DNA of 64,000 bases. Source: a virus. The notes under the pieces are model-generated. The model saw only the letters and a list, made by a program, of their open reading frames with translations. It was not told the DNA's origin and made no database searches. The first letter of the stretch is position 1. Every line of letters begins with the position of its first letter. The stretch is taken from the IMG/VR virus record IMGVR_UViG_3300020048_000023, positions 96,911 through 160,910 of that record, one strand, 5' to 3'. Positions 1,079 through 63,992 of the stretch are shown one piece after another. The position numbers were made by a program, and so were the translations under genes.

Positions 1079-1511
1079 CGTGGGTAAATGTATAGGCGGT
1101 TGCCTATATTTTCATAAGGAATATGCTGAAAAACTTTACATGGATATCAGCAATCTTATTCGGGATGTTACCCCAGATTTTAATATCATTAAACTATCTT
1201 TATCCACGGCAGATATAACACTCCTTAATTCACCAGATTTTGATACATCGCCAGAACCATCAATTTTGGAATATTGGCATTATAGTTCAAACTCTGACCA
1301 ATGGAAGTACCATCGTTATAGCGAAGGCGATAATGCGCCCATATATCACCATAAGTGGATGTTTGTAATGGACGACTATTCTGGTTTCGATGTTGAAGAG
1401 TCCAAACAACGGTCAGCTTGGATTGAGTCATTACCAATTAAGCATTTAAGTATTGGTTATCAACGCCAATGGAAAGAAATTTTAGGAAAATTTGGTAGTT
1501 CGGAAAATTAG
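1056..1511 (+). CDS. protein resembling the C-terminal domain of the PT-associated putative methyltransferase
   Basis: GKCIGGCLYFH, PDFDTSPEP, DNAPIYHHKWMFV..DY, IGYQRQW; start corrected to ATG 1056. Confidence 0.6.
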   Translation: MLKRYKNNVGKCIGGCLYFHKEYAEKLYMDISNLIRDVTPDFNIIKLSLSTADITLLNSPDFDTSPEPSILEYWHYSSNSDQWKYHRYSEGDNAPIYHHKWMFVMDDYSGFDVEESKQRSAWIESLPIKHLSIGYQRQWKEILGKFGSSEN

Positions 1512-1542
1512 TTGTACATTTGCGGTTCAAATCTAAAATACT

Positions 1543-2256
1543 ATGCCGCTTATTACCAAAATACATAAGGCACCAGTTGGAGAGTTTACCATTAAATTCT
1601 CAACCCGACTCAACAAGTTTGAAATCGAGTACCCAACCGACAACCCAGAGGTATTGGCTCAGCTCAATAACCAAGTTATTAATCGTAACCATAATTTATT
1701 GAAGTGGAACGACGTTGAAGCTGAGATTCAGAGCATCATAGATCAATACCGCACCAAGATACTTATGACCCGCAAGGTTATCATAATCAGGCTACGGACT
1801 TCCGAGAGTAACTACGAATTTGAAAGTAAAAGAGAGTGGTTAGGAAAGACCACAACGGAGCAAAAACAATATGACCATCTGAATGACGTGGAAGGTTTTG
1901 CTCTTCAATGGTTCGTGGCAGAAGAATACCAGTACCCAAAGAAGGCAAACATACAAAGAAATGACTTGAGGTACAAGATCATTGAAACCAATAAAAATAA
2001 CAGCCGCAGTGGTTATTATTTGAACGGTAAACGGCATGATACTACCAACATATTACCGCAGTTGATGAATGACGACGATGGGTACGGAAGCCTACGTATA
2101 TTCACCTATACTGACGACCTATACCAATTCCTACAAGAAGTGCAGGAATCCATAGCTACAATGCTACACAAAATGATTGACTATTTCTCCGTCGATCCAC
2201 AAAAATTCTTGAATAACGTTGAACAAAAAATAAAATTACTCTCAGATGGAAAATAA
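1543..2256 (+). CDS. hypothetical protein
   Basis: 237 aa, first ORF after promoter 1491. Confidence 0.8.
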   Translation: MPLITKIHKAPVGEFTIKFSTRLNKFEIEYPTDNPEVLAQLNNQVINRNHNLLKWNDVEAEIQSIIDQYRTKILMTRKVIIIRLRTSESNYEFESKREWLGKTTTEQKQYDHLNDVEGFALQWFVAEEYQYPKKANIQRNDLRYKIIETNKNNSRSGYYLNGKRHDTTNILPQLMNDDDGYGSLRIFTYTDDLYQFLQEVQESIATMLHKMIDYFSVDPQKFLNNVEQKIKLLSDGK

Positions 2257-2542
2257 TGAAGATGCTAAGGATATGGAATACCTCGGCGAATACGCTGGCT
2301 ACCAATGCTGGAAGAATAGCGAAGGCTTTATAGAAGGGTACAAATCAATTGGCTTGGAAAATGTAACTGGTAAGTACTGTAGGCTGGCTAAGGATATGAC
2401 TCGGCTCGTTACAAAGACTAAAACCACCGCCGAATTTGTGGACGTTATTAAGGCAATGGAAGCTAAAGCCAAAACAGATAAAAAAGAAAAAAAATACAAC
2501 CCAAAAAAAATAGAAAACCAACTTAAACTCGAACTTTTATGA
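2246..2542 (+). CDS. hypothetical protein
   Basis: 98 aa, overlaps both neighbours. Confidence 0.75.
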   Translation: MENNEDAKDMEYLGEYAGYQCWKNSEGFIEGYKSIGLENVTGKYCRLAKDMTRLVTKTKTTAEFVDVIKAMEAKAKTDKKEKKYNPKKIENQLKLELL

Positions 2543-3366
2543 AAAAATCTACATTACTTACTGCCATAATTATTGCTTTCGTTAGCATCATCCTTGCGGT
2601 AATATTTGTTATTGTCACTTCGACATTAGCGCATTCTCAAACAACGTATCCATATAAGGCTGACAGACCTGGAATGGCTATTGGAGCCTACAACGTTGGC
2701 GTGCATCAAATGGATTATGAGTGCAGCGCCAACTATGGTAAGTATTTCGGGACAACCACTACGTCAATAACCAATCAATTCAGGTATGGTGCGTTTGATC
2801 ATTTGGAATTTAGGGGTGGTTTTAACATCCAGCATAGCGACTATTCAAACGTAGCTGGCATTTCCAATATAAATCTTGGCGCTAAGATACCTATTATACG
2901 TGATACAGCGGCATTTCCAGCTATCTCAATAACTGGCGGTGTTGTATTACCGCAAGCTGGTAGACCCGAATTTACTATTGATAGCTATCTAAAATATGCG
3001 GCAATTAGTTTGCAAAAATCTTTTGGAAGCGTCATACTAATAGGTAATATTGGCATAATGTCTGACGCCCATATTCCTGATGGGAGTTACTTAGTAAACC
3101 CTAACACCATAAATCATAAAGCTCAAGGCACTTATGCCTTGGCTGTGTATAAATACTACGGCAATATAGGTGTCTTTATTGAAACCTATGGGTACTATGG
3201 TGCAGGTTCGTCGGAACCATACGAAGCGTTTGATCTTGGATTGGCTATAGTGATAAAAGATAATGTAAGCGTCGATATGTCATTTGGGGCTTCTTATGCA
3301 GATGGACTTGATATTTCATTTTGTAACTGGGGTGTGGGCTGGCTCATACCCAATAAAAATAAGTAA
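2539..3366 (+). CDS. outer-membrane beta-barrel protein (Phenol_MetA_deg / transporter-like)
   Basis: Signal/TM N-terminus, ADRPG motif, alternating amphipathic strands, terminal WGVGW. Confidence 0.65.
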   Translation: MKKSTLLTAIIIAFVSIILAVIFVIVTSTLAHSQTTYPYKADRPGMAIGAYNVGVHQMDYECSANYGKYFGTTTTSITNQFRYGAFDHLEFRGGFNIQHSDYSNVAGISNINLGAKIPIIRDTAAFPAISITGGVVLPQAGRPEFTIDSYLKYAAISLQKSFGSVILIGNIGIMSDAHIPDGSYLVNPNTINHKAQGTYALAVYKYYGNIGVFIETYGYYGAGSSEPYEAFDLGLAIVIKDNVSVDMSFGASYADGLDISFCNWGVGWLIPNKNK

Positions 3367-3369
3367 TAT

Positions 3370-4164: not shown

Positions 4165-4259
4165 AGCTTTTTATTTATAAATATTAGAAAAGCCTTGGTT
4201 ATTGCCGATCTTATGTGTATATTTGCGGCATAAAATAAAATACTAAAAAAAATAACATT

Positions 4260-5921: not shown

Positions 5922-5978
5922 ATTTGGTGGTTTAAAATTTTAGTTGTATATTTGCCGTGAACTTTTAAACAGACCACG

Positions 5979-8760: not shown

Positions 8761-8840
8761 ATAAAAATTTGGTAGTGTCAAAAATTAGTTCTATATTTGC
8801 GGCATAATTCAAATCATAACAAACTAAAACCAACAAAACA

Positions 8841-10545: not shown

Positions 10546-10609
10546 ATGGTAAAATTTGGTAGTTTCAAAAATTAGTTGTACTTTTGCTTAAACTTTAAAA
10601 CAAAACGCA

Positions 10610-12113: not shown

Positions 12114-12167
12114 AAATTTGGTAGTGTCAAAAAGATTGTTTATATTTACAGCCTAAATTGTAATATA

Positions 12168-13580: not shown

Positions 13581-13658
13581 AAAAGTTTTGGTTATACCGA
13601 AAACTTTATGTATATTTGCCGAAAGTTTCACTTATAACACCTAAACAATAGATAGCCA

Positions 13659-17166: not shown

Positions 17167-17227
17167 AAATAAATTTGGTAGTGTCAAAAACATTGTGTAT
17201 ATTTGCACTATAATTAACCACTAAGAT

Positions 17228-17643: not shown

Positions 17644-18729
17644 ATGACCAGACTTAAAAACAGAACCAAAGAAGAAGTTATTCAGGACGTCACTGGCTTC
17701 CTGAATGAGCTATTTGTTAAGTTCAATAACCAAAAGTCTGTTCCTTACACCCAGATACAAATTGAATCATTAGCCGAACAACACCATATTGAGGGTAGGC
17801 TTCGACGAATACTTATCAAGCACGAATTTGTGCTGGATAAACGCAGATACACCAGAAAGTTTACCGAAAACCCAACCGTTGAAGATATTGATTTTTACAT
17901 TAAAGAAGCCAAAGAACTCAGAAGCGTTGAGGGTAAAAGATATTTAGCTAAGCTAACCGACGAAGAGCGCAAAAGGTTCTTTAAAAAGAGAAACAGGCGC
18001 CGCAAACGCGCACTAACCAAAGAGCAAAAACATATTATCAGCGTTGAAGCCTACCAAAAACGGGTATCACAATGGACTACACAGGAAGAAAAGGACGCAT
18101 TCTATAAGAATCAATACGACGCGGCTGTTCAACGCAGGCTTCGGTATAAATTATTGGAACGTGAGATAGCCGACGCACTACCAAAGCTAATCAACTTCTG
18201 CAAGAGGCTAACCCACGACTATGAAGACTTGGTACAGGACGCATGCTTCGCTGCTTGGACTGTAAAACGTAGGTACAAAACAGGTACAAACATATCCGCT
18301 TGGCTCATAGGAATTGCCGTGAATATTAAGGCTAATAAACAGAAGGCTGCTGCGTTGCACCCAGAGGTTCTGGTTGACGAATTTCATGAAGATGTACTTG
18401 GCGTAGAAGAGCCGTCCGAAGAATCTATCAAGGAACAAATGGAAAAGGATTTGGCTCAGGCTCACTTAGCACAGGATATCACAGCCAAGATCAAAGAGTG
18501 CTTGGAATCATTACCAGAGAGCTATAAGGTTTACATTAAACTGGACGCCAAAGGTAATTCACACTCCCAGATAGCTACCATACTTAAAAGGGAAGCAACA
18601 TATTCAAAAACGAGGCTGTACCAAGCCAGACAACTATTACTCGCCAAAATACAGGATAAGCTTAACGTTAAGCTGTCGGAAAAACAGGCGTGGGAGTTAA
18701 TGCATAATAATCTAATACCCATAGACTAA
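17644..18729 (+). CDS. ECF-type RNA polymerase sigma factor with long basic N-terminal extension
   Basis: Region 2: EDLVQDAC..AW...Y..GTNISAWLIGIAVN; region 4: LESLPESYK...G.SHSQIATIL....SKTRLYQARQLL. Confidence 0.82.
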   Translation: MTRLKNRTKEEVIQDVTGFLNELFVKFNNQKSVPYTQIQIESLAEQHHIEGRLRRILIKHEFVLDKRRYTRKFTENPTVEDIDFYIKEAKELRSVEGKRYLAKLTDEERKRFFKKRNRRRKRALTKEQKHIISVEAYQKRVSQWTTQEEKDAFYKNQYDAAVQRRLRYKLLEREIADALPKLINFCKRLTHDYEDLVQDACFAAWTVKRRYKTGTNISAWLIGIAVNIKANKQKAAALHPEVLVDEFHEDVLGVEEPSEESIKEQMEKDLAQAHLAQDITAKIKECLESLPESYKVYIKLDAKGNSHSQIATILKREATYSKTRLYQARQLLLAKIQDKLNVKLSEKQAWELMHNNLIPID

Positions 18730-19922: not shown

Positions 19923-19954
19923 TTTGGTAGTGTCGGAAACAAGTTGTATATTTG

Positions 19955-44660: not shown

Positions 44661-44697
44661 AGTTGTACATTTGTCGAAACTTTAAAACAAACATAAA

Positions 44698-45500: not shown

Positions 45501-45572
45501 AATAATTCATAAAATATTTGGTAGATTGAAAAATTAGTTGTAATATTGCAGCCTAATCTAAAACACACGGCA

Positions 45573-46750: not shown

Positions 46751-46813
46751 TAATTTATTTGGTAGGTTCAAATATTAGTTGTATATTTGCAGCTCACTTA
46801 AACACTCAAACCA

Positions 46814-47281: not shown

Positions 47282-47313
47282 AGAAGCTCTTGCAAAGCAT
47301 AGGTGCTTGTTTA

Positions 47314-47348
47314 AAAAGCTGGTTAGAGATGACCAGCTTTTTTTTTTT
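47314..47348 (+). terminator. intrinsic terminator
   Basis: AAAAGCTGGT-TAGAGATG-ACCAGCTTTT followed by a T-run. Confidence 0.85.
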
Positions 47349-47425
47349 CTTAAATTATTTTGTAAATTATTTGGTAGGTTCAAATATTAGTTGTATCTTC
47401 GCATTCTAATTTAAAACATACGACA

Positions 47426-47749
47426 ATGTATAAGACTGAACAAATTGCAGAGATTAAAAGAATAATTGCTGAATGGGGTTGCACCACAGCTTGCGAGCTT
47501 GAACTTGATTCGTCGCCTTGTATTAATTCATTAGGTAATGGTAAGAATAACGTATCACAACTTGTTGAAATGTTTAATTCTGACCACGTAACGGCAGTAA
47601 CCTATCATGATGATAATGAAATCGGTGAGGAAGATATAATCTATGAAGACCTATCGGAAGACATCATAGACGAAATTTACAATCATTTGGAGCAATACGA
47701 CATTGCACAGATTAAACTGTATGGAAGTATTAAAAACGAAAACTTTTAA
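47426..47749 (+). CDS. acidic hypothetical protein
   Basis: 107 aa after promoter 47370. Confidence 0.75.
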   Translation: MYKTEQIAEIKRIIAEWGCTTACELELDSSPCINSLGNGKNNVSQLVEMFNSDHVTAVTYHDDNEIGEEDIIYEDLSEDIIDEIYNHLEQYDIAQIKLYGSIKNENF

Positions 47750-47760
47750 TCAAAAACATT

Positions 47761-47994
47761 ATGGCACTCAGGAAAACTACATTAAAGAAGCTGGAACACG
47801 CAGCAGCAGTCAAAAAGGAAGTTGACACATTATTCGCCGACAATGACGAAATGGGCTCGAACGCTGGCGAAGTAATTAACACTATTTTGTGTGAACATCT
47901 GACGGCAAAGGAATGTAAGGCAATCATATTGAAGGTTGCTACTCGAAATAAAAATACACGGAACGAGATTCTTCACTACTTAAACAACCGCTAA
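47761..47994 (+). CDS. hypothetical protein
   Basis: 77 aa. Confidence 0.7.
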   Translation: MALRKTTLKKLEHAAAVKKEVDTLFADNDEMGSNAGEVINTILCEHLTAKECKAIILKVATRNKNTRNEILHYLNNR

Positions 47995-47995
47995 T

Positions 47996-48289
47996 ATGCC
48001 AATCAAAGATATATCAGAAGCAAACGCACGCCTATTATGTTTCGGTGTAAAGCAAACAGGTTCATTCCTTGAGGCTTACCGATATGTAGAGGAATCACTC
48101 TATATGCACGAAGCCGAGGAACTTCACAAATTCTGTGAATACCTTGATAACGAAGTGGGCGGAGCAAGTATGCACAACATAGTCATATTGTTTCGTGCGT
48201 ATAAGAACCCAAACGACCCGACCTTAAAGGCTTTCGTACAGGGTATCAAAGATCAGATACAGGAAATAAACGATATGCTGCAAAAATAA
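47996..48289 (+). CDS. hypothetical protein
   Basis: 97 aa. Confidence 0.7.
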   Translation: MPIKDISEANARLLCFGVKQTGSFLEAYRYVEESLYMHEAEELHKFCEYLDNEVGGASMHNIVILFRAYKNPNDPTLKAFVQGIKDQIQEINDMLQK

Positions 48290-48357
48290 ATTGTAAATTA
48301 TTTGGTAGGTTCGAAAACTTGTTATATCTTTGCCGAGCAAATTTAAAACAAATCCCT

Positions 48358-48669
48358 ATGAAAAAAGAATCTATCGGACGTTACGGCTTGCTGCGGATGG
48401 CAGCAGCCACACGTATTAAAGAGCGTGAAGAGGCAAAGCAGCCAAAGCCTGTTGTGCCTTTGTTTCCTTACCACTATACGATAATGACTACCGATGATGG
48501 TAGCCGATCGGAAGACAGCCACCAAAAGTATGGCGGAACAGTTCAAGCAGCCGATGACAATGATGCCAAAATTAAGGCACGTGAGGCACTTTCGGAAGAG
48601 TACCCATACCTTACTATCCATTGGGTAGAAGTGTTTAAAAAGATGCCACTTCAACATATGTCAATGTAG
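48358..48669 (+). CDS. hypothetical protein
   Basis: Start corrected. Confidence 0.7.
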   Translation: MKKESIGRYGLLRMAAATRIKEREEAKQPKPVVPLFPYHYTIMTTDDGSRSEDSHQKYGGTVQAADDNDAKIKAREALSEEYPYLTIHWVEVFKKMPLQHMSM

Positions 48670-48675
48670 ATTAGT

Positions 48676-49002
48676 ATGAAAACAGAAGCCGACCTCAAAG
48701 TGTTGGACGTATGTATTGACGTCTACAAAGATGGTATCAATGCCGAGCAGAAGTACCACTTCTCCACACAAGAAAAAATCGAAGAGCATATTGCTAATTT
48801 CGGTTTCAAACTAAAGAGTATCAAATGTTTGTCATATGGTGAATATCGAATCTATGATGATACCGACCCACACGCATACGATACCTATCACGCTGAACTT
48901 GAAGATGGCACACGATTCTGTATCAAACGCAGATACGGCAGACCATTATGGTACGGCAACGTAGCCTATGAGAATTGGTTAGAAGCAACTTTATTAAAAT
49001 AA
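48676..49002 (+). CDS. hypothetical protein
   Basis: 108 aa. Confidence 0.7.
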   Translation: MKTEADLKVLDVCIDVYKDGINAEQKYHFSTQEKIEEHIANFGFKLKSIKCLSYGEYRIYDDTDPHAYDTYHAELEDGTRFCIKRRYGRPLWYGNVAYENWLEATLLK

Positions 49003-49075
49003 ATCATAAATTATTTGGTAGGTTCAGATATTAGCACTATCTTTGCCTACCAAATTCAAATAAATCTATACAAAA

Positions 49076-49258
49076 ATGAACGACAAGGAAATTGAAAAAG
49101 GTTATCACGATGCAGCCAAACTTTTATTTATGGTGATGCATAGCGTAGGCGACTTTCACGCTCTTGGCTTTAACAGAAAAGCTATTGAGGACTTTTGCAA
49201 ACAGTACGTAAAAGATAATAAAGAAAAAATACTTGCCGAAGGTGGCGTAATTGATTAA
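49076..49258 (+). CDS. hypothetical protein
   Basis: 60 aa after promoter 49014. Confidence 0.7.
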   Translation: MNDKEIEKGYHDAAKLLFMVMHSVGDFHALGFNRKAIEDFCKQYVKDNKEKILAEGGVID

Positions 49259-49262
49259 TAAT

Positions 49263-49817
49263 ATGGGAACGAGATCATTTACCCAAATGGCAGAAGCCGC
49301 CTCAATGAACGAGGCTTTCAGAAATCTGCAACGTGCCGCCCGTGAAGAATATGGCAGGGATAGCTACAATGGCGAAATCAATAACTGCGAACTTGAAGGT
49401 GATGTAACACGGCAGTACAATGCAGCCAAGGACAAAAAGAAATTCGTACAGGAAACAATGCATAACCTTGAAAAACGGGTTGCGTATGGTATTACCCTCA
49501 AAGAGCCAAAGGTAAGCACAAACAAAATCAAATCGGTTGTTGAAATTAAGCCAAATAAAGGCGCAAGAGTGTGGGAAACCCGATATGTGGTCTATGACCC
49601 TTGGGATGAATCTGAACGCGCCATAGCCTCTGAAAAGACGCAAGGGGCGGCAATTAAGAAGGCACGTGCCTATACCGAAAAAACACAGAAGCGAACCATT
49701 GTTCAGCTTGAAAAAGTTTTGGTTAAGGGAAGCGCAAGTGTTGGTACTATTTCCTACAAAACTTCAAAGACCGAAACCAAAGGTAAATTCTTATTTATTG
49801 TAGCCGCACCCGAATAA
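49263..49817 (+). CDS. conserved phage protein
   Basis: EAF..L...A..EYG.D.YNG.I ... G.FLF..AAPE. Confidence 0.8.
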   Translation: MGTRSFTQMAEAASMNEAFRNLQRAAREEYGRDSYNGEINNCELEGDVTRQYNAAKDKKKFVQETMHNLEKRVAYGITLKEPKVSTNKIKSVVEIKPNKGARVWETRYVVYDPWDESERAIASEKTQGAAIKKARAYTEKTQKRTIVQLEKVLVKGSASVGTISYKTSKTETKGKFLFIVAAPE

Positions 49818-49872
49818 TAAATTTGGTAGATACAATTATTAGTTGTATATTTGCAACTCAAATTTAAACCAT

Positions 49873-50055: not shown

Positions 50056-50099
50056 ATATGAAAATAATTTATAAAACATTTGGTGGTGTCAAATATTAG

Positions 50100-50177
50100 A
50101 TACGAAAAACCGACATTATGGCTGTACTATCGGGTAAGCAGAAAACGGCAAAAGGATTTATTTTTCGTAGGCAATGA
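50100..50177 (+). pseudogene. NUMOD1 C-terminal relic of a homing endonuclease
   Basis: IRKTDIMAVLSGKQKTAKGFIFRRQ*, similar to the C-terminus of 36280; fused to a promoter lacking its -7 box. Confidence 0.7.
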
Positions 50178-50241
50178 AATAAATTTGGAAAGTTGTAAAA
50201 TAGTTTGTATCTTCGCACCGTCAATCAATAAAACTAAAACT

Positions 50242-50888: not shown

Positions 50889-50962
50889 TAAATTATTTTG
50901 TAATTTATTTGGTAGGTTCAGAATTTAGTTGTATCTTTGCTGAAACTTTAAATCATACGGCA

Positions 50963-51325
50963 ATGAACGGAACTCAATTCAGAATCTACCAGTTTCTTTT
51001 AAACGAAACCAAAGACACTACCAAATGTATGGAAGTGTCGGAAATTGCAAAGCAAATGAATATCAAGCGGCAAACCGTTTATACTCATTTATGCAAACTT
51101 CACAAACACAAACTTATTTTCCGTGGCGATACAGGGCTTGGTGCTAAACCGTTAACTTCGTGGCGGGCTGAACCAAAGGCTTTATACTGTGCCGCTACTG
51201 AACTATGGAACAAAGGCGAACAAATGAAAGCCGTTGACCTTAACATTACCCTGAATGAAGCTGACAAAAGGGGTATATTTACCAAAGCCGAAATGTGTAT
51301 TTTCATACAAAACAATGTGAAATAA
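50963..51325 (+). CDS. winged-HTH DNA-binding protein
   Basis: VSEIAKQMNIKRQTVYTHLCKLHKHKLI. Confidence 0.75.
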   Translation: MNGTQFRIYQFLLNETKDTTKCMEVSEIAKQMNIKRQTVYTHLCKLHKHKLIFRGDTGLGAKPLTSWRAEPKALYCAATELWNKGEQMKAVDLNITLNEADKRGIFTKAEMCIFIQNNVK

Positions 51326-51380
51326 ATTTGGTGGTGTTAAATATTAGTTGTACATTTGTCGAAACTTAAAACACACGGCA

Positions 51381-51995
51381 ATGATTTTCTGTAAAGTAGA
51401 TGAAGCGTTAATCGACATATTGCACAAGGTTGCAAACGGTCGCAGGATAATTGATCTGGGTGCTGGTGAGTGCCTATTTGAATCAATGTATAAAGAAAAG
51501 TACCCTGATGCTGGTATATTATCAGTTGAACTCTACACCGAACATTACGACCACTTCTTTATTCCTCGGTCAAACATTACTCGGTTCTATGCTGAGAAAA
51601 TGCAATTCGATACAAACGACTTGCCTATCTTTATTCGTCCCTGTCATTCAGAGAGTTTCGTACCAGCCTCATTGAAAAATATGGAGAATATGGTTCCCGA
51701 AGCTATATACATATCTAACAAACGTAATATATTGGTGGATATTCCCGAAGAATATACATACGAAACAGTAGGAGATTGGAAGGGTAAAGACGACGGCGAA
51801 CAGATATTCCGTATTCGACTGTATGGCGCTCCCTATGTGGCTACCGAAAAAGATTGGTGGATGGTTAAGCTGGACGGCTGGGCTGCACCTGTAAAATTGG
51901 AACGTATTGAACGCTGGGGCGAATGGCACTTTGTTAATACCAAAGGCGGTGGATTTCCATGCAAGGCTGCTGATTTTGCCGAAAAGATAAAATAA
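51381..51995 (+). CDS. SAM-methyltransferase-like protein
   Basis: IIDLGAGE motif I, ILSVE, FIRPCH. Confidence 0.55.
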   Translation: MIFCKVDEALIDILHKVANGRRIIDLGAGECLFESMYKEKYPDAGILSVELYTEHYDHFFIPRSNITRFYAEKMQFDTNDLPIFIRPCHSESFVPASLKNMENMVPEAIYISNKRNILVDIPEEYTYETVGDWKGKDDGEQIFRIRLYGAPYVATEKDWWMVKLDGWAAPVKLERIERWGEWHFVNTKGGGFPCKAADFAEKIK

Positions 51996-52047
51996 ATTTG
52001 GTAGTGTCAAAAATTAGTTCTATATTTGCGGCTTAAACAATACGGCA

Positions 52048-52698
52048 ATGAAAAAGACAATGAAACTTGTTACACCCGAACCCGAAGAAATTCTAACCAG
52101 CGTTGACTGGCTGGACGAACGTGTTAAATCACGCACTGATCGTGGCTTTGGTGGTTATCCTGATGTTATTACCCCTGATTATGGTATTGGTATCACGTTC
52201 AAAGATGATGAAGGCGTGGAATATACGACCGTTGCCAGCAAAGGTATCAGGCGAATTGATGTGAGTGTTCACACTTACAAAGGCGGTATGTGCTACGGCG
52301 CAATTCACTACTACGCACACGTGGACGTTGGCGAACCCTCTTTATCCTGTATCAGGAACGGCGAACCTTACGTTGGCGGTATCGGTGGCTACTTTGACAG
52401 ATTCAAACCCGCAGAAGTTAAAAGCATTTCAATTGAAGTTGACAGGCTTATAACCGATGAAGAGTTGGAAGGTAACACGGATAAAAATCACCGTTGGTAC
52501 GGCTACGAAAAAGGTAGTTTAACCAATGCCTACGAAGATGAAATCCAGCTGTACAATGATATTGTTTCCTGCATAAAGGCTCGTTTCGCTGGTGAGTGGG
52601 AAGTATGGATTGATGGCTTCGACAATGAAGACCTTTGCACCTGTTACGAAGGACAAAAATCAATACCGTTGGCAGAACTTACTACAAATAATTTGTAA
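52048..52698 (+). CDS. HYY-motif paralogue family protein
   Basis: GAIHYY...EVDRLIT.EE...W.GY.KGS.T.AY. Confidence 0.8.
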   Translation: MKKTMKLVTPEPEEILTSVDWLDERVKSRTDRGFGGYPDVITPDYGIGITFKDDEGVEYTTVASKGIRRIDVSVHTYKGGMCYGAIHYYAHVDVGEPSLSCIRNGEPYVGGIGGYFDRFKPAEVKSISIEVDRLITDEELEGNTDKNHRWYGYEKGSLTNAYEDEIQLYNDIVSCIKARFAGEWEVWIDGFDNEDLCTCYEGQKSIPLAELTTNNL

Positions 52699-52758
52699 TT
52701 TATTTGGTAGAGTCAAAAACTTGTTGTATATTTGCAGCCTAATCTAAAACAAACGGCA

Positions 52759-52950
52759 ATGTTCAAAGTAAAACACAGGAAACACAATGTAGTAACCTTT
52801 GAGGGTACTATGGAATTGGAAGAAGTCCTAAAGCTAAAAGCGATGGACAAGTTAATAAAACACCTGTTATCCTTAAACGAAAATTTCTACCTATTTATAG
52901 GCGTTGAGGGCGCTTGCGGTGAAGAGTGGAACATAACTTACACAGTATAA
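52759..52950 (+). CDS. hypothetical protein
   Basis: 63 aa; ACGGCA-ATG leader. Confidence 0.7.
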   Translation: MFKVKHRKHNVVTFEGTMELEEVLKLKAMDKLIKHLLSLNENFYLFIGVEGACGEEWNITYTV

Positions 52951-53200
52951 GAGAAAAGGCTGCCCCTGTGGTTCTGCCCCTATCCGCGGGGGAGTTACAG
53001 ATTCAGCGCATACCTTCGGGAAGAGCGCACACAGGGGGCGGACAGCCTCTAAGATAAGGACAACCGTTGGCAGGACGGTCTTGGGGTGAGTTTACAGACA
53101 AATCAATCTGTACGCAAGCGATACCTCGGCTGCTAACGATGTACAAATGATGCGCCTCTAAGGGTGGTTTGATACCCAACCGATCGGGCGCATTTGCCGT
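52951..53200 (+). ncRNA. GC-rich multi-domain structured ncRNA candidate
   Basis: Three closed multi-helix domains, cUUCGg and GCAA loops, T-loop-like GGGT-GGTTTGAT-ACCC; no ORF. Confidence 0.7.
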
Positions 53201-53276
53201 TTAATTTATTTTGTAAATTATTTGGTATTGTCAATTATTAGTTCTATATTTGCACCCTAATCTAAAACATACGGCA

Positions 53277-53549
53277 ATGAAATTCTTTCAGATCACAGTA
53301 ACAGAAATCGAGGGTACACCCAATGAAATCCTTGCTAAGGTTTACAGACAAAACAATATGGAACGCGCTGCTTGCTTCGCTGAAAGTGGTGGACTAACAA
53401 TGGAAGAGCGTTTAGGCGAAGGTAAATGTCCTGCGTGCGGTAACACCGAATGGGATGTAAAACCATTTGCCTATAATGACTATATGAACGGTGGCAACGG
53501 CAAACCAAACATTGAATGTCGCAACTGTGGTCACATAACCCACTTATAG
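53277..53549 (+). CDS. Zn-ribbon protein
   Basis: CPACG...CRNCG. Confidence 0.75.
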   Translation: MKFFQITVTEIEGTPNEILAKVYRQNNMERAACFAESGGLTMEERLGEGKCPACGNTEWDVKPFAYNDYMNGGNGKPNIECRNCGHITHL

Positions 53550-53559
53550 ATTAAACAGT

Positions 53560-53856
53560 ATGAATAACAACAGAGAAGAAATTGAGGGATTATACCCTGA
53601 CAGTAAAATGCTATTCGCTGACGGCTTTGACGCTGCCATACTCGGGGTTGATACAAACCCTTGGACTAAAGAAGCTGACGAGGGCGATGATTCCAAAGAG
53701 CGCGTGGTTTATTCCGTGCGAAAGATTATGATCATTCTTATGGACACTATGGAGTATGAAACTGCTCGCGAACACTTTGATTATAATATCAAAGGCGGAT
53801 ATGTAGGAGTGCACACGCCAATCTTTGTGGAAGATGAAGAACTTTTTGAAGATTAA
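53560..53856 (+). CDS. conserved phage protein
   Basis: ADGFDAAILGV...VVYS...A.EHFDYNI.GGYVG..TPIF. Confidence 0.8.
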   Translation: MNNNREEIEGLYPDSKMLFADGFDAAILGVDTNPWTKEADEGDDSKERVVYSVRKIMIILMDTMEYETAREHFDYNIKGGYVGVHTPIFVEDEELFED

Positions 53857-53922
53857 ATTTGGTATTGTCAAAACTTAGTTGTATATTTGCACGGCTAATC
53901 AATCATAAAACAAACAAACGAT

Positions 53923-54249
53923 ATGCCAATCAAAGCACACACCCCCGCAGTAACCGTTAAATTCGGCAGGACTGCCAAAATCGGAGTAATCATAGGAAAG
54001 AACTTGGAATCTCGCAGACCTGTTCTCGTTCTTGCCCCTATACAAAAAGCTGAACGTGGTAAAACATTTAACCCCGATGCCGTACTTAAAGCAGGCGAAA
54101 CAAGAGTTGTTATGGAATTCGTTTCACCGAAAAGCGTTGACGTGGTTATCGCTCAACTCGAAAAACTGAAAGAAATCCTTATCAAAGACTACGCTGCAAA
54201 ATTGGCTGCTGAAATGCACAACCAATTGGATGCGTTTGTCAATGAGTAA
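53923..54249 (+). CDS. hypothetical protein
   Basis: 108 aa after promoter 53858. Confidence 0.75.
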   Translation: MPIKAHTPAVTVKFGRTAKIGVIIGKNLESRRPVLVLAPIQKAERGKTFNPDAVLKAGETRVVMEFVSPKSVDVVIAQLEKLKEILIKDYAAKLAAEMHNQLDAFVNE

Positions 54250-54286
54250 ATAACTGCCGCTCGGCAGGTTACATTGCCGTGTAACG

Positions 54287-54328
54287 AGGGGGTTGTGGTC
54301 GCCAGACTGCACCCCCTTATTTTTTTTT
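54287..54328 (+). terminator. intrinsic terminator preceded by two small hairpins
   Basis: AGGGGG...CCCCCT followed by a T-run. Confidence 0.7.
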
Positions 54329-54392
54329 GTAAATTATTTGGTAGTGTCAAATATTAGTTGTATCTTCGCATTCTAATTTAAAACATACGGCA

Positions 54393-54584
54393 ATGATAAA
54401 GAAAAATTGGATTGTAGTAACCGAATTTAATGAGTGGGTAGGAACCTGCACCAAAATGACTTTTGAAGAAGTCAGGGAAGAACTGAAAGAAATTCGCCAG
54501 TGTTTAATTGACGATGGAAAGCCAGCCGATACCGAACTTATTGTGTACGAAACAGTAGGTGAATCAGTAAGCTATAAATCATAA
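54393..54584 (+). CDS. hypothetical protein
   Basis: 63 aa; ACGGCA-ATG leader. Confidence 0.7.
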   Translation: MIKKNWIVVTEFNEWVGTCTKMTFEEVREELKEIRQCLIDDGKPADTELIVYETVGESVSYKS

Positions 54585-54588
54585 ACCA

Positions 54589-54903
54589 ATGGAAATAGTT
54601 GAACTCACACCCGCACGAAGGCTTGAAATCTACAAGGCTGTGCTAAACTATATCAAAGTGCATACAAATACGGAACACGTGTATAACGATGCTATTTGTA
54701 TTACAATTTACAGGGTAAAGAAGGTGAATGAACCCGAACCCTGCTTCGGTAATATGGAATACTATTACCCTGAATTGGCTGCACACAGACCAGCGCACAT
54801 TGAATCGTGGTGTGATGTATATTGGTTTGGGTTTCACGATTACGGAACGCAACAGCGTGTCAGGATTATGGAAGAAATAATATCAAAAATGGAAGCCGAA
54901 TGA
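54589..54903 (+). CDS. hypothetical protein, paralogue of 50595
   Basis: RLEIY...YYPEL...RP...YWF...G.QQR. Confidence 0.75.
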   Translation: MEIVELTPARRLEIYKAVLNYIKVHTNTEHVYNDAICITIYRVKKVNEPEPCFGNMEYYYPELAAHRPAHIESWCDVYWFGFHDYGTQQRVRIMEEIISKMEAE

Positions 54904-55229
54904 CCCCTGACTATGTAGCACGGCTGGTTGAGCGTAAGTTTAACCAGCTTGATATGAACGACGAAAAAAGCGTCTATCGGTTCAATAAGGCTTGTACTTT
55001 ATTGGAAGAGAATATTCATATTAATTTCTATGAGTTTGAGGAAACCGAACTTGTACGAAAGTGGGCGAAAGACCTATGCGATCATAAGGTGCAATTTGAG
55101 AATTGGTACAGGAATATAGGCTGGGTGTATCAAACAAAGGAATTGGCTGGGCAACACTTCCCAAAAGGCTGGTATTTTCTTACCGCTATCCATTATGTAC
55201 GAATCAGGCTCAAAAGAAATAATTCATAA
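54900..55229 (+). CDS. hypothetical protein
   Basis: Start corrected; C-terminus NNS* is encoded by the repeat. Confidence 0.7.
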   Translation: MTPDYVARLVERKFNQLDMNDEKSVYRFNKACTLLEENIHINFYEFEETELVRKWAKDLCDHKVQFENWYRNIGWVYQTKELAGQHFPKGWYFLTAIHYVRIRLKRNNS

Positions 55230-55287
55230 TTTATTTGGTAGTGTCAAAAACTTGTTGTATCTTTGCTGAAACTTAAAACCTACGGCA

Positions 55288-55713
55288 ATGGCAAAAACTA
55301 TCACATTCGGATTACCTTGCACACCAGCTAAGCTAATCTCACACGAAATAACACAAAATATTGAGCGTGTTTTGCTCAGTTATGGTGGCGGAATCGGTGG
55401 CACAACCCAAACCCTATTCATTAAGGACAGGGAAGACAGCATAACAGGCGAACCCTTCATTGACGTAACCAAAATCAATGGGCAGGCTGATAAACTCAAT
55501 AAGAACTTCATTGTTAAAATAACCCCTGTTAAACTGTACACAGTTGTTACCGACGTTACAGCGCACCGCAACTATCAATCAAAAGTATGCAACTCGGCTA
55601 TTCAGACAGAAGTATTTGTACTTGAAATGGACGAATTTACTGTACATGAATCAGATAAATATCATGGCGATAATTCGGACAGGCGAATTGTGAACGAAAC
55701 TGAAATGAAATAA
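55288..55713 (+). CDS. hypothetical protein
   Basis: 141 aa; ACGGCA-ATG leader. Confidence 0.75.
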   Translation: MAKTITFGLPCTPAKLISHEITQNIERVLLSYGGGIGGTTQTLFIKDREDSITGEPFIDVTKINGQADKLNKNFIVKITPVKLYTVVTDVTAHRNYQSKVCNSAIQTEVFVLEMDEFTVHESDKYHGDNSDRRIVNETEMK

Positions 55714-55721
55714 TTCATAAT

Positions 55722-56405
55722 TTACCGCTTAATTACTCTATTCAGATATGAACACATTGGCTGTAAATTCGTGTAGTGATTAAGCTGAATTAATTCATCC
55801 TCAGACGTGGCGGAAGACGACTTTTTAATATGGTCAATGTCCCAGCCGTAATTTGGGCTTCCATTGTACAGACCTTTGTTATCCCAATTCATCCAAGGTT
55901 CAAACTTTGATTCTATATACAATTTAAACTCTTCTATTGAGCAGCCTAAAATATTTACCGTTCTCTGGCTCTTTTTAAAACCCATACCTCTAAGGGAATC
56001 CCTGATAAGCCCCTGCACTTGTTTTTTTAATTTGAATAATGGGTCATTATTAATTCGTTTCTTATAATAACAATAGACTTGTGCGTTTATCTTTTCTTTA
56101 TTTGCACGATAGGCTGCTTTTCTTTTTGTGCTAATTAATATGGAATTATCGGCTCGATATTTTTTACTATATTCCGTAATGATATTTTTGCGTGAATCAA
56201 AATATGTTTTTCTTTCCAGTTTATGCTGATCGTAGTATTGTTTACTCCGTTCTAATTCTTTATCAATGTTACGTTCTCTATGCAATCTGCCGTATTCATT
56301 AACGCATAGCTTACATTTACCGTTATAACCGTCCTTATTTGTTTTATGTACGGAAAACTCACTGACTGGCTTTTCGATACCGCACGTTTTACATATTTTT
56401 TGCAT
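55722..56405 (-). CDS. HNH-type (endonuclease VII-like) homing endonuclease
   Basis: KICKTC..EK..F...CKLC; ILGCS...IE.KF..WMNWDN; WDIDHI; HYTNLQP. Confidence 0.88.
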   Translation of the reverse strand: MQKICKTCGIEKPVSEFSVHKTNKDGYNGKCKLCVNEYGRLHRERNIDKELERSKQYYDQHKLERKTYFDSRKNIITEYSKKYRADNSILISTKRKAAYRANKEKINAQVYCYYKKRINNDPLFKLKKQVQGLIRDSLRGMGFKKSQRTVNILGCSIEEFKLYIESKFEPWMNWDNKGLYNGSPNYGWDIDHIKKSSSATSEDELIQLNHYTNLQPMCSYLNRVIKR

Positions 56406-56504
56406 ATTCACCTATTTTTATATAAGTATGCAGAAATATTGTAAAAGATTTGGTAAGTTAAAAAACTTGTTGTATATTTGCAGTGAATTTAAAACTATAA
56501 CAAA

Positions 56505-56805: not shown

Positions 56806-57024
56806 ATGTCAAACTTTAAACCACAATTCAGGATAAATAAGAAAAGCTTTGTATATGATACATACAGGGAACTGAAAAGCAAAATGGCTGGCGTTATGAA
56901 GGAACAGGGCGTTACCGAAGTATGTGTGTCACGCTCCAAACGTGGCGACTGGGGCGAATGGTTTGAATACTGGTACCTGCACGACGATGGAAGCCTGAGC
57001 AAAGGCAGGGAAGGATGGATGTAA
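56806..57024 (+). CDS. hypothetical protein
   Basis: VSRSKRGDWGEWFEYW. Confidence 0.75.
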   Translation: MSNFKPQFRINKKSFVYDTYRELKSKMAGVMKEQGVTEVCVSRSKRGDWGEWFEYWYLHDDGSLSKGREGWM

Positions 57025-57094
57025 AATAATTCATAATTTATTTGGTAGTGTCAAAAACTTGTTGTATCTTTGTCGAAACCTAAATCACACGGCA

Positions 57095-57529
57095 ATGAAT
57101 AAAACAACCCTTGAAATCGTACCAACCCCGCACACAATGTCGCACACGCTATTCAGCGGACAGGACAAATTTATTGATGCAATGCGGGAAGGCAAATTTG
57201 TGTATGTTGACGTAAGATCACACACAAAAACCTCTGTAAGTATTGCCCTTCACCTTGAGCCGCACAGATACGGAGCAAACAGCGTGAAAACCGAAGGAAT
57301 GAAGTACCTCGAAAAACGTGAAACTAACTTCTTTGAAGGTGTAACCTATACGGCATACTATCTGAAAGCCAAAGCACTTGCAGACGTTCAGAAACACGTT
57401 GAAACCCTACTTACTCACTTCTTTCCTTCACTCGAACTTGAAGGCTTCACCCTGAAGTTTTTTAATACTCCAAGAACAGAAGAATTGGCACGTTGGAAAT
57501 ACCCCGAAGATTCATATAAAACAATATGA
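57095..57529 (+). CDS. hypothetical protein
   Basis: ACGGCA-ATG leader. Confidence 0.75.
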   Translation: MNKTTLEIVPTPHTMSHTLFSGQDKFIDAMREGKFVYVDVRSHTKTSVSIALHLEPHRYGANSVKTEGMKYLEKRETNFFEGVTYTAYYLKAKALADVQKHVETLLTHFFPSLELEGFTLKFFNTPRTEELARWKYPEDSYKTI

Positions 57530-57690: not shown

Positions 57691-57748
57691 ATTTGGTAGT
57701 GTCAAAAACTTGTTGTATATTTGCAACCTCACTTAAAAACATACGGCA

Positions 57749-58752: not shown

Positions 58753-58818
58753 TTTGTAATTTATTTGGTAGTGTCAAAACTTTGTTGTATCTTTGCTGCT
58801 CACTTAAACCTCACGGCA

Positions 58819-59446: not shown

Positions 59447-59981
59447 TTCATAATTTATTTGGTAGTGTCAAAAATTGGTTGTATATTTGCATCCTAATTA
59501 ATACGGCAATGAAAATCAGGGAAAGATACAGATTAAACAAGCTGGCAAAAGTGGGCGACACTTGCATATGTGCTGGCTGTGGTGGCTCTTTTGTTAAAGC
59601 TAATTATCAGCAAGCCTTCTGCAAAGCCAAAGGCGGAACGGTATGCAAAGATAAGTATTGGAATACGGTTACACCTTCCAAACGAAACAATACAACCCGC
59701 ATAAGTCCCGCAAGTGCCGCATTTATGGAAAGTGATAGAGGTAAAGATATAATTAACAGGCAGAAATTCGGTATGGATGCCCCTAACATTATCGGCGGCT
59801 CTGGACGTATTAGCGGCGTTACAAGCGAAGGTTATAGAATTATGGACGGAATAGCCTATGATGAATTTGATGATGCCATATACACGGTTGACCCCTTCGA
59901 CGATACGCACCCCTTTGATATGGATTGTTAAAATAATTCATAATTTATTTGGTAGTGTCAAAAATTGGTTGTATATTTGCA
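59440..59981 (+). repeat. 52-bp identical direct repeats flanking one gene
   Basis: 59440-59491 is identical to 59930-59981. Confidence 0.9.
59509..59931 (+). CDS. Zn-binding hypothetical protein
   Basis: CAGCG..F.K..YQQAFC...CKD.YWN. Confidence 0.8.
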   Translation: MKIRERYRLNKLAKVGDTCICAGCGGSFVKANYQQAFCKAKGGTVCKDKYWNTVTPSKRNNTTRISPASAAFMESDRGKDIINRQKFGMDAPNIIGGSGRISGVTSEGYRIMDGIAYDEFDDAIYTVDPFDDTHPFDMDC

Positions 59982-60444: not shown

Positions 60445-60508
60445 ATAATTTATTTGGTAGATCAAAATATTAGTTGTACCTTCGCATTCTAATTTAAACC
60501 TCACGGCA

Positions 60509-61354: not shown

Positions 61355-61411
61355 ATTTGGTGGTGTCAAATATTAGTTGTATCTTTGCACTTCACATTAA
61401 ACACTACGGCA

Positions 61412-61694: not shown

Positions 61695-61979
61695 ATGTCT
61701 ATATGATAACTTGTACCGCACCCGCCCGCACACGCAAACCCGCATTGGCGTAACGCACACACGACGTATGCACCGCACCCGCATATGTGCGCCCGCACCC
61801 GCTATATGTCTATATGATTATTTAACCGCACACGCTATACTATATATAGGGGCTTATTTAGACTGATTATTAATAACAAAAATTTCAGATTAATTCGTAC
61901 AAAAATTTGGTAGTGTCAAAAATTGGTTGTAATATTGCAGCCTGATCGGGACAAATTCGGTCAGGTAAAATTTACGGCA

Positions 61980-62879
61980 ATGTTTTTAATAGGAAGTGAA
62001 AAATCGATCAATGCAGTTGAACTGCTAATGAAAACGGGCTTGGATTGGTCAGTTTCAAAAGAAAAATTACAAACCGAATCGGGTATTGTTACCGATCACG
62101 TTGCAATCGTTCGGGAAGATACAAAAAGTATCTTAGGCGTACACAAATCGGGGTACGAAGTATTTCAGAATCAGGAACTTGCAGAATTAATTCTCGACCT
62201 GTCAAAGGTTGCAGATGCTCCGCTCCATTCGTTTGGAACTCTTAAAGACGGTGCAAAAGTGTACATTCAGCTGAAAACAGGTAACACACGCATTCGCAGA
62301 CCTGACGGCACAATGGACACCATTGAAGGCTACGGCACTGTAGTAAATTCGTTCGACGGCTCGACCTCGTTGGGTATCGGAATCAGCACCAAAACAATAT
62401 CCTGTATGAACACTTTTTTTGCCGCCTACAGGCAGTTAGATAGCAAAATTAAGCACACCAAAGGAATGACGGTAAAAGTTGAAGACCTGCTCCGCTCCAT
62501 GGATATTTTCCGCAAAGATGAATCCGCACACTTTGAACTCATTAGCCGCCTCGCACAGACTCCGATTACCGCACAGGCGATAGATACCGTTTACAAAAGT
62601 ATGTTTGACGTAAGCTTTGCCGAAGCTCAGGCAAACCGCACCGCAAAGGTGGACGCTCGCACCCTCAGCACCAAAAAAACAAACCTGATCGAAACCTTTA
62701 CCCTCGACACCGCAAACCAAATCACAGACAAGGGCGAAACCCTGTGGGGCTTGTTCTCAGGTATCACAAAATACACTACTCACAGCCTCGGGGCTGACAG
62801 TGAAGAGGCAAAAATGTTCGGCTCTGTTGCCTCGAAAGAAAGGGTAATTTTGAGCAAATTTGCAGACCTCGTAAAGTAA
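61980..62879 (+). CDS. DUF932 domain protein (phage/plasmid type)
   Basis: GLDW.V, VREDT...LG....Y.VFQN, G.L..G.KVYI, NSFDGS, CMNT, KHT, TLWGLFSGIT.Y..H. Confidence 0.88.
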   Translation: MFLIGSEKSINAVELLMKTGLDWSVSKEKLQTESGIVTDHVAIVREDTKSILGVHKSGYEVFQNQELAELILDLSKVADAPLHSFGTLKDGAKVYIQLKTGNTRIRRPDGTMDTIEGYGTVVNSFDGSTSLGIGISTKTISCMNTFFAAYRQLDSKIKHTKGMTVKVEDLLRSMDIFRKDESAHFELISRLAQTPITAQAIDTVYKSMFDVSFAEAQANRTAKVDARTLSTKKTNLIETFTLDTANQITDKGETLWGLFSGITKYTTHSLGADSEEAKMFGSVASKERVILSKFADLVK

Positions 62880-62897
62880 GCAAACCGCACCCCTCAA

Positions 62898-62926
62898 GCC
62901 TCGCACTTTGCGGGGCTTTTTTTTTG
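62898..62926 (+). terminator. intrinsic terminator
   Basis: AGCCTCGCA-CTT-TGCGGGGCT followed by a T-run. Confidence 0.85.
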
Positions 62927-63209
62927 CCCTGTATAGCCTAAATTTGCGCCCTGTTAGATCAAAGGAATCAAAACAGCCTCACATACCACACAGGGGCAAA
63001 AGTGGCTTAAAACGGTTTAAAATTAATATGCACATTTGCCGCATATATACAGGCTTGCTATTGTCTAATGATTATTTAACCCCGCACGCTATACTATATA
63101 TAAGCAAAAAATATTTCATATTAATTTGTACAAAAATTTGGTAGTGTCAAAAATTAGTCGTAATATTGCAGCTCAATTCAATCATTAATTAATCTTAAAA
63201 TTTACGGCA

Positions 63210-63992
63210 ATGAAAATTTCAGAAGACATCAAAACCAACGCAAAGGCTGTTATTACAGCTGTTCAGGCTAACAATGCCGAAGGCAAAAAGTACATTAATT
63301 TGTTCGCTTTGCTTCGCCTTATTGTGCTTACTTCCCGCCTTACTTGTCCTACAATTATTCGCATAAAGGACTATGTTTCGAGCGCTTCAAACCTTTCAGA
63401 GGTTGCAGATTGTAGCTTTTTAATCGGCGTTAAATATGGCAATGCTAGAGAAGCTAGTATAAAACAAGCTGAAAATTTGGATGCCGAGGATATTTTGGCT
63501 ATTCAAAATTCCTGTAACCCTAATGATATCAAGGGTTTCAAGTACATTAACAAAAAGGGGCTAACGGCTGATGAATATTGCGCTCAGGTTCGTAGCTTTG
63601 TTTTGGACGCTATAGCCAAAAAGTGCGCCCCGAAAGTGCGCAAAAATATGGAAGTGATCCGCATTAATAGTGTACTGAAATATTTTATAAATACAGGTAA
63701 CATAAATATGTTGGGTGAAAAGTTAAACAGTAAAATAACTAAATTGCACCTTTGCCCCGCCTGTAGTGGTGAATATATGTATGTTTCGGTTGTCGAAGAT
63801 AGCCACACAGAATGCCCTATTTGCCACGCTACTATTGAAAATTTAACGGCTAACAAACCCGCAACGGTTGCAGGTTGGCAAGTTGACAAGTTTTTAAATA
63901 GCAGAGCTTCGAGGGTACAATGGCATACCGTTTCACAGATCGGCAGTATCACAATACAGCACGAAAATTTAGAACTTGTTCCAACGGAATAA
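63210..63992 (+). CDS. hypothetical protein with CPxC..CPxC Zn ribbon
   Basis: 260 aa; ACGGCA-ATG leader. Confidence 0.8.
   Translation: MKISEDIKTNAKAVITAVQANNAEGKKYINLFALLRLIVLTSRLTCPTIIRIKDYVSSASNLSEVADCSFLIGVKYGNAREASIKQAENLDAEDILAIQNSCNPNDIKGFKYINKKGLTADEYCAQVRSFVLDAIAKKCAPKVRKNMEVIRINSVLKYFINTGNINMLGEKLNSKITKLHLCPACSGEYMYVSVVEDSHTECPICHATIENLTANKPATVAGWQVDKFLNSRASRVQWHTVSQIGSITIQHENLELVPTE

Follow-up and report, generated by a model that had tools for sequence, protein, structure and literature searches.

The final 64 kb of the 160,910-bp viral contig IMGVR_UViG_3300020048_000023 (the window, 64,000 nucleotides, positions 96,911 to 160,910 of the contig; coordinates are those of the window unless the contig or a relative is named) carry an array of co-oriented repeats built on the -33 TTTG and -7 TAnnTTTG boxes of Bacteroidota promoters. 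With a probability of roughly 80%, these repeats are strong promoters of the host type, each followed by a short leader, which are unusually numerous and do not form a special gene-cassette system. A first-pass annotation of the same DNA had proposed such a system, free of integrase, in which the repeat would be at once a strong early promoter and a recombination handle. This apparently exotic arrangement becomes explainable if the phage reuses the tRNA-type promoter grammar of its host phylum about 81 times.

The exact word TTTG-N20-TAnnTTTG occurs 44 times in the window (43 on the plus strand and one on the minus strand), compared with 0.65 ± 0.83 times in shuffled sequences. An nhmmer profile of the repeat (cut-off E<1e-3), from which the plus-strand copies listed below are taken, recovers 54 plus-strand copies, 43 strict and 11 variant, 15 of them at 1491-31755 and 39 at 35384-63137. 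This agrees with the 53 co-oriented copies (15 and 38) counted earlier between 1488 and 63210, although the array is not confined to these bounds, because the same profile run over the whole contig, as the first-pass annotation had advised, finds 81 copies, all on the plus strand, which also carries 84% of the contig genes. The 20-nt spacer, described as fixed, is strongly preferred (N20 in 65 copies genome-wide, N19 in 6, N21 in 2 and N22 in 3), and its consensus, GTAGTGTCAAAAATTAGTTG, is the same as the one given before. The conserved stretch runs from about 15 nt upstream of the -33 box to about 25 nt past the -7 box, and BLAST matches between repeats extend up to 75-85 bp at 75-92% identity. 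In the dense region of 27.8 kb the 39 copies lie about one per 0.7 kb among small genes mostly without a family match, and, as had been noticed, one copy precedes nearly every one to four of them; the gene content of this region is highly variable between lineages.

The position of the repeats is that expected of promoters. The -33 box of most copies begins 1-20 nt past the stop codon of the previous gene, which is often the TAA within AAATAAATTTGG, and the distance from the -7 box to the ATG that opens the next open reading frame (ORF) has a median of 25 nt with a sharp peak at 22-25 nt. The only minus-strand copy (34971-34940) heads the minus-strand operon, with gene 34921-34652 following 19 nt downstream, a layout that is the same in a relative. 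Within the -7 box, the two variable positions are TA, TC, CA, CT, TT or AA and G is found in 0 of 65 strict copies; Shine-Dalgarno cores are depleted (4.3% versus 8.4%) and 53% of the genes have A at -3. These features agree with the refinement of the -7 element of Flavobacterium johnsoniae to TAHHTTTG (PMC6847099) and with the Shine-Dalgarno-less, Kozak-like initiation of translation in Bacteroidota (PMC7366714), and a scan for promoters of the E. coli type showed no enrichment (59 versus 51). The repeats thus combine a TAHHTTTG -7 box, a TTTG at 19-21 nt, a co-oriented placement upstream of genes and a leader without Shine-Dalgarno sequence, and the attribution of the boxes to the primary sigma factor of Bacteroidetes is supported. 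Duplication of whole cassettes was considered as the source of the repeats and ruled out, since the cargo genes form only 7 small families in an all-against-all blastp and are therefore not paralogues of each other.

The first-pass annotation had also argued that the spacer is conserved beyond the needs of a promoter. Constraint was measured in 29 positionally orthologous pairs of repeats between relatives, with the four-fold degenerate sites of flanking genes as baseline. TTTGGT is conserved at 97-100%, GTTG and TA..TTTG at 93-100% and the A-tract at 86-93%, whereas mid-spacer positions (62-83%) are close to the four-fold sites (68-74%), indicating that constraint acts on the extended -33/-7 elements and the A-tract while the rest of the spacer drifts. 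The same extended logo is found in two viral contigs, with 40 and 20 co-oriented copies, whose proteins have next to nothing in common with those of this contig. Moreover, the 22-base word TTTGGT-N4-TCAAA-N5-GTTGTA-NN-TTTGC, for which one chance match or fewer is expected in a 596-Gb genome collection, has at least 120 matches there, and all among the matches listed are in Bacteroidota chromosomes, mostly of Bacteroidales. Around them appear features that the word does not impose (AAAATA upstream, an A-tract of greater length and an A that follows TTTGC), and the 400 nt downstream of the 81 chromosomal matches examined contain 42 tRNA genes. A composition-matched control with the two spacer words complemented (TTTGGT-N4-AGTTT-N5-CAACTA-NN-TTTGC) gave 17 matches, all in mitis-group Streptococcus and none in Bacteroidota; these are presumably part of a dispersed streptococcal repeat family. 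The chromosomal matches, their placement before tRNA genes and the control together point to the strong, stable-RNA-type promoter of the host phylum, so that the positions under constraint, common to unrelated phage contigs and at least 120 cellular promoters, do not exceed what a promoter needs.

Each repeat would accordingly be a promoter-leader module of about 70-85 bp. An A/T-rich upstream element (often including the previous stop, AAATAA) is followed by TTTGGT as the extended -33 element, by 20 nt of spacer containing an A-tract, and by GTTG-TAHHTTTG-C as the extended -7 element; the leader up to the ATG is A-rich, about 20 nt long and free of Shine-Dalgarno sequences. This module, presumably read by the primary sigma factor of the host (sigma-ABfr type of Bacteroidota), would copy the consensus of the strongest promoters of the phylum, such as those of tRNA genes, and the large phage would use it about 81 times, with one copy per 0.7 kb or so where small ORFans and homing endonuclease genes form a hyperplastic region, so that every one to four genes would obtain immediate, strong and position-independent expression. 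Regarding the claim of a strong early promoter, then, the type of promoter stands, its strength is probable and early timing is what we infer. Gene turnover, for its part, would take place at any gene boundary, probably through recombination that is illegitimate or relies on short homology and through repair connected with homing endonucleases, with homologous exchange between repeats being only occasional and not the organising principle.

The module shares with the sigma-ABfr promoters of Bacteroidota, especially the strong ones before tRNA genes, the two boxes, the 19-21 nt spacing, the lack of G at the variable positions, the A-rich upstream element, the TTTGGT, the TCAAA A-tract, the GTTG before TA, the C after the -7 box and the A-rich leaders without Shine-Dalgarno sequence (PMC6847099, PMC7366714). 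It differs from chromosomal promoters in a far higher copy number and density (161 kb contain 81 near-consensus copies, and a stretch of 28 kb has one every 0.7 kb), in a rigid leader length of about 20 nt and in a very well kept -33 element, which is weak in the genome-wide logo of F. johnsoniae (PMC6847099). Early promoters of phage T4 are "uber" promoters (UP/-35/TGn/-10) whose consensus extends beyond the canonical elements and which out-compete host promoters (PMC2988021); the likeness consists in near-perfect promoters for the host sigma factor, with extra consensus positions and UP elements, reused by a large lytic phage against host promoters as soon as infection has begun (PMC2988021). 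The grammar here is, however, that of Bacteroidota and not of E. coli, timing and strength are in this case predicted, and no Alt-like modification is known for this phage, although its genome encodes ADP-ribosyl-related domains (NADAR). In a phage of Bacteroidota, the array could thus play the part that early promoters play for T4 in the takeover of host transcription. The extended consensus AAAATA-TTTGGT-N4-TCAAA-N5-GTTG-TAHHTTTG-C, and about 80 natural variants of promoter and leader, may be of interest for Bacteroidota expression tools. In an unrelated viral contig of 345 kb (G005, the record of L012), 24 co-oriented near-consensus Bacteroidota promoters lie within 55 kb (281-335 kb) at one genome end; the same architecture suggests that dense arrays of host-type promoters may be common in large Bacteroidota phages.

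Relatives of the window were found with the DUF932 protein encoded at 39623-40429 as probe, and five lineages were compared: that of the window, lineage A (L014, whose probe protein is about 88% identical), lineage B (L017, L026, L029; about 81%), L031 (95%) and L032 (81%). Contigs within one lineage are about 100% identical, so that the structural variation covered here is that between lineages. All five lineages carry the repeat, and the region is a mosaic with heavy gene turnover. Other ways into related loci gave little: megablast with a 20-kb piece of the window as query had no match in the phage collection, the phage sigma protein (17644-18729) led to no related locus and the GP88 protein led to a single distant contig of 6 kb. 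The copies in the window, with their counterparts in relatives, are as follows.

1491-1522 (+): strict copy; ATG 20 nt downstream
4194-4225 (+): variant with CTTG as -33 box; profile E 3e-4
5923-5954 (+): strict copy
8768-8799 (+): strict copy
10555-10586 (+): strict copy
12117-12148 (+): variant with TTTA at the end of the -7 box
13587-13618 (+): strict copy
17174-17205 (+): strict copy, heading the unit with the phage sigma-factor gene
19923-19954 (+): strict copy; orthologue L029 1583
21081-21112 (+): strict copy, within block 20877-22030 (not in lineage B)
24494-24525 (+): strict copy, within block 23925-25125 (not in lineage B)
26102-26133 (+): strict copy; orthologue L029 6979
27770-27801 (+): strict copy
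28408-28439 (+): strict copy, before the L7/L12-like gene 28460-29038
31755-31786 (+): strict copy; orthologue L014 806
34940-34971 (-): sole minus-strand copy; counterpart L017 5052 (-)
35384-35415 (+): strict copy, before the GP88-family gene
36864-36895 (+): weak copy directly after an HNH endonuclease gene, with which it comes and goes across lineages
37785-37816 (+): strict copy
38463-38494 (+): strict copy, preceded by terminator-like hairpin 38409-38436
39213-39244 (+): strict copy
40531-40562 (+): strict copy, preceded by hairpin 40447-40471
41681-41712 (+): strict copy without downstream ORF; terminator-like hairpin 41841-41862 about 150 nt on
42611-42642 (+): strict copy; short ORF-free unit with hairpin, then the next copy
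42716-42747 (+): strict copy; orthologues L014 11959 and L017 11733 (98-99% identity)
43028-43059 (+): strict copy with divergent spacer
43707-43738 (+): strict copy, overlapping the 3' end of HNH gene 43314-43727
44642-44673 (+): strict copy, within a 1.1-kb segment missing from lineages A and B
45517-45548 (+): variant, -7 box TAATATTG
46758-46789 (+): strict copy
47370-47401 (+): variant, -7 box TATCTTCG, preceded by hairpin 47313-47342; same variant at orthologues L014 15113 and L017 15189
48301-48332 (+): strict copy
49014-49045 (+): strict copy
49822-49853 (+): strict copy; no long ORF within 130 nt
50079-50100 (+): truncated copy, initial 21 nt or so followed by unrelated DNA; intact orthologue L017 15895
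50184-50215 (+): variant, TATCTTCG
50908-50939 (+): strict copy, before the HTH_20 gene 50963-51325
51327-51358 (+): strict copy, left edge of a two-unit segment missing from lineage B
51997-52028 (+): strict copy
52703-52734 (+): strict copy; lineage B homology restarts at its 5' edge
53221-53252 (+): strict copy, within a 3.47-kb segment missing from lineage B
53858-53889 (+): strict copy
54337-54368 (+): variant, TATCTTCG
55234-55265 (+): strict copy
56449-56480 (+): strict copy; orthologue L017 19652 (94%)
57041-57072 (+): strict copy, within inserted block 56806-57529
57692-57723 (+): chimeric copy (P57692), a recombinant between two repeats by alignment with L017
58160-58191 (+): variant, TACCTTCG
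58764-58795 (+): strict copy
59458-59489 (+): strict copy; 92% identity over 79 bp to the 59948 copy, one gene between
59948-59979 (+): strict copy
60453-60484 (+): variant, TACCTTCG
61356-61387 (+): strict copy; orthologue L026 12833
61906-61937 (+): variant, TAATATTG, before the second DUF932 gene
63137-63168 (+): variant, TAATATTG; ATG at 63210

The following genes bear on the discussion of recombination and of sigma factors.

17644-18729 (+): phage sigma-70-family gene, 361 aa, of which 170 aa are an N-terminal extension, with no sigma regions other than 2 and 4_2; downstream of repeat 17174
36280-36858 (+): NUMOD4/HNH_3 homing endonuclease gene, in the window and lineage A, not in lineages B and D
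41834-42607 (-): HNH-type homing endonuclease gene, restricted to the lineage of the window; a paralogue at genome 39680-40363 is 60% identical
43314-43727 (+): gene for a small HNH protein, kept in lineages A and B
55722-56405 (-): endonuclease VII/HNH-like gene, within the 3.47-kb window-only segment

Alignment of relatives allowed the breakpoints of gene content to be placed with respect to the repeats. Every junction between neighbouring genes was classed as conserved, broken or internal to a novel block. Between the window and lineage B, 18 of the 29 repeat-bearing junctions are broken (11 conserved), compared with 26 of the 46 repeat-free junctions (20 conserved), which gives an odds ratio of 0.79 (p=0.81), and none of the six pairwise comparisons between lineages is significant. 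Breaks are therefore as frequent where there is no repeat, and several inserted blocks carry a repeat internally, which is largely what the first-pass annotation had named as evidence against its own proposal. The window-specific blocks 20877-22030, 23925-25125, 38741-39621 and 56806-57529 have plain gene-gene ends with the repeat inside, and the 3.47-kb window-only segment begins where gene 52759-52950 ends, with 265 nt still to go to the closest repeat. In a manual tally of about 20 variable segments, repeats are found at both ends in 4 (47426-49817, 51327-52698, 53221-56405 and L017 20189-20435), at one end in 11 and at neither in 5-6, close to the 3/10/7 that repeats at 40% of the junctions would predict. 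Since promoters occupy about 40% of the junctions, breakpoints beside them are expected by chance and enrichment can only be judged against repeat-free junctions, a quantitative caution for other claims of this kind. Where both flanks are conserved, the closest copy is the positional orthologue (identity 0.84-0.99), as in vertical descent of each copy together with its flanks; concerted evolution of the copies was ruled out on this basis.

The known system that comes closest to the cassette proposal is that of the promoter-early stem-loops (PeSLs) of T4-type phages (Arbiol 2010, PMC2839356; Comeau 2014, PMC4122927), and the repeats could likewise be preferred sites of homologous recombination that move promoter-plus-gene units, possibly via small circles, and generate the variable region. 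The parallels are considerable: a block of about 100 bp, present some 50 times per genome, that contains an upstream stop in AT-rich DNA, a strong host-type promoter and a translation start, concentrated in hyperplastic regions before ORFans and, as in PeSLs, densest where gene content varies most (PMC2839356). At least one indel also consists of two repeats against one chimeric repeat: at the place of P57692, L017 has two repeats with a 61-aa gene between them. The upstream flank of P57692 corresponds to L017 P20189, and its distal spacer, leader and gene correspond to L017 P20435, with the crossover inside the core of about 40 nt that the two have in common, precisely as the signature of PeSLs requires (PMC2839356). 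The near-identical pair 59458/59948 around a single gene, the truncated copy at 50079 and the four or so segments with repeats at both ends go in the same direction. As an account of the variable region this is nevertheless unlikely, given that junctions are not broken more often at repeats, that the segment tally is near chance, that four blocks have the repeat inside, that the 3.47-kb indel starts away from any repeat and that the closest copies are orthologues and not paralogues. Furthermore, the element, different from a PeSL, contains neither stem-loop nor terminator (mean fold z -0.07; no more than 15 of the 54 copies have a structured upstream region, and terminator-like hairpins, with 20 found versus 17 expected, show no enrichment), and the phage, as far as the fragment shows, is not T4-like and belongs with a different host phylum. 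No recombinase was found either: tyrosine and serine recombinases (PF00589, PF00239) are absent from the 161-kb fragment, which is 67% complete and is to this extent integrase-free, as had been said, and neither RecA nor an AAA_24/Sak4-type protein was found in the contig. Arrays resembling the attC cassettes of integrons have been reported in some flavobacterial phages, and the likeness is that of small, mostly uncharacterised genes separated by a repeated element; but here there is no site-specific recombinase in the fragment, the repeat is not an imperfect palindrome (the same fold z), and it lies 5' of each gene and contains a promoter, whereas integron cassettes are generally promoterless. 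The chimera and the 59458/59948 pair leave PeSL-like exchange as a minor but real possible pathway, and of the recombination handle only this occasional role survives, not that of the main mode. That the repeats have a second function of this kind, as PeSL-like substrates of recombination in a large Bacteroidota phage unlike T4, is in our view unlikely; the strongest host promoter would then serve as portable homology, and occasional exchange, perhaps triggered by homing-endonuclease cuts beside repeats, would excise and reinsert self-expressing promoter-plus-gene units. It is also possible, though still not the likelier course, that homing endonucleases drive much of the mosaicism by cutting near junctions with co-conversion, the repeats being bystanders at about 40% of junctions. 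At least four endonuclease genes lie within 29 kb. Three of them (36280-36858, 41834-42607 and 55722-56405) occur in some lineages and are missing from others, the first jointly with the weak repeat that follows it, and more such genes are found in relatives (L014 4266-5243, L026 15878-17923 and the P0008 contig). The truncated copy at 50079, moreover, adjoins a short peptide resembling the NUMOD tail of the 36280 endonuclease, but this weak similarity (44%) covers just 18 residues, and most variable segments contain no endonuclease gene.

As for what reads or controls the repeats, the sigma-70-family gene in the window raises the question of whether they form a phage-specific, middle class of promoters read by the phage's own sigma factor and not by that of the host. 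This is highly improbable. The motif is the primary-sigma consensus of the host phylum, including the extended positions, and stands before cellular tRNA genes, while the phage protein, with regions 2 and 4_2 only, has an architecture like that of the extracytoplasmic function (ECF) sigma factors. Such sigma factors read different -35/-10 words. The sigma gene itself also lies behind repeat 17174, so that host polymerase must read at least this copy unless the protein is injected with the DNA; the protein probably provides the switch to late genes lying outside the fragment. Similarly, the portion of the spacer that is particular to this lineage (TAGTGT ... TAGTTGT, at a distance of about 12 nt) might be an operator through which a phage regulator silences or retimes this class of promoters. 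The candidate regulator would be the small HTH_20 DNA-binding protein encoded at 50963-51325 (+), behind repeat 50908 and 87% identical in lineage B, and subclasses of repeats do exist, with variant -7 boxes (TTCG and TAATATTG) conserved in orthologues. An operator is rather improbable all the same, because the mid-spacer drifts between orthologues near the neutral rate, the well-kept spacer words are those common to cellular promoters, and the spacer consensus has no dyad symmetry.

Several points weigh against reading the repeats as host-type promoters and nothing else. P57692, although the only clean recombinant between repeats that was found, and copy 50079, which breaks off after about 21 nt, mean that repeats sometimes take part in rearrangements, and there is a weak spatial clustering of repeat subtypes (rho -0.19, 5/2000 permutations). 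The power of the junction test is modest (75 informative junctions, 2-4 lineages at 80-88% identity, overlapping events), and a moderate preference of recombination for the repeats would be compatible with it. The phage does encode a sigma-family protein of its own. Promoter activity, strength, early timing and the polymerase involved are all deduced from sequence alone, and "host-type" refers to the consensus of the phylum Bacteroidota as a whole and not to one particular host.

Among the variant copies, two -7 boxes recur, TAATATTG (45517, 61906 and 63137) and TA(T/C)CTTCG (47370, 50184, 54337, 58160 and 60453). The variant at 47370 is kept in both orthologues, which suggests that the TTCG boxes are a functional subclass, perhaps weaker or differently timed. 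Behind two other repeats lie ORF-free units, 41713-41870 and 42643-42715, each ending in a terminator-like hairpin (in the second, GGCGTTCGG..GGCGCC at about 42670-42700), which are candidate small RNAs; Rfam gave no match anywhere in the window. A further ORF-free stretch of 270 nt, GC-richer and with hairpins, lies at 52951-53220 between a stop codon and repeat 53221, and is part of the 3.47-kb segment.

The contig is classed as linear by IMG/VR, and CheckV estimates it as 67% complete. No terminase was found in its 160,910 bp, and its recognisable genes are non-structural (helicases, RNA ligase, RtcB, tRNA-His guanylyltransferase, NAMPT, NADAR and radical SAM); the contig is therefore the non-structural arm of a larger phage, whose full size is probably about 240 kb. 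It also encodes a minus-strand protein of 2,521 aa and 28 tRNA genes, clustered at 9.8-41.2 kb of the contig. In the window, the gene at 28460-29038 (+) codes for a ribosomal protein L7/L12 C-terminal domain (Pfam E 4e-10) and has a counterpart in lineage B (L029 8633-8998). The conserved anchors of the variable region are two DUF932 paralogues (39623-40429 and 61980-62879) and the GP88-family gene (35441-36248), and homologues of DUF932 are found in many metagenomes, with identities down to 27%. Outside the window, at contig positions 36768-38030 (L002/L003), there is a tandem array of roughly 19 units with a period of about 65 bp.

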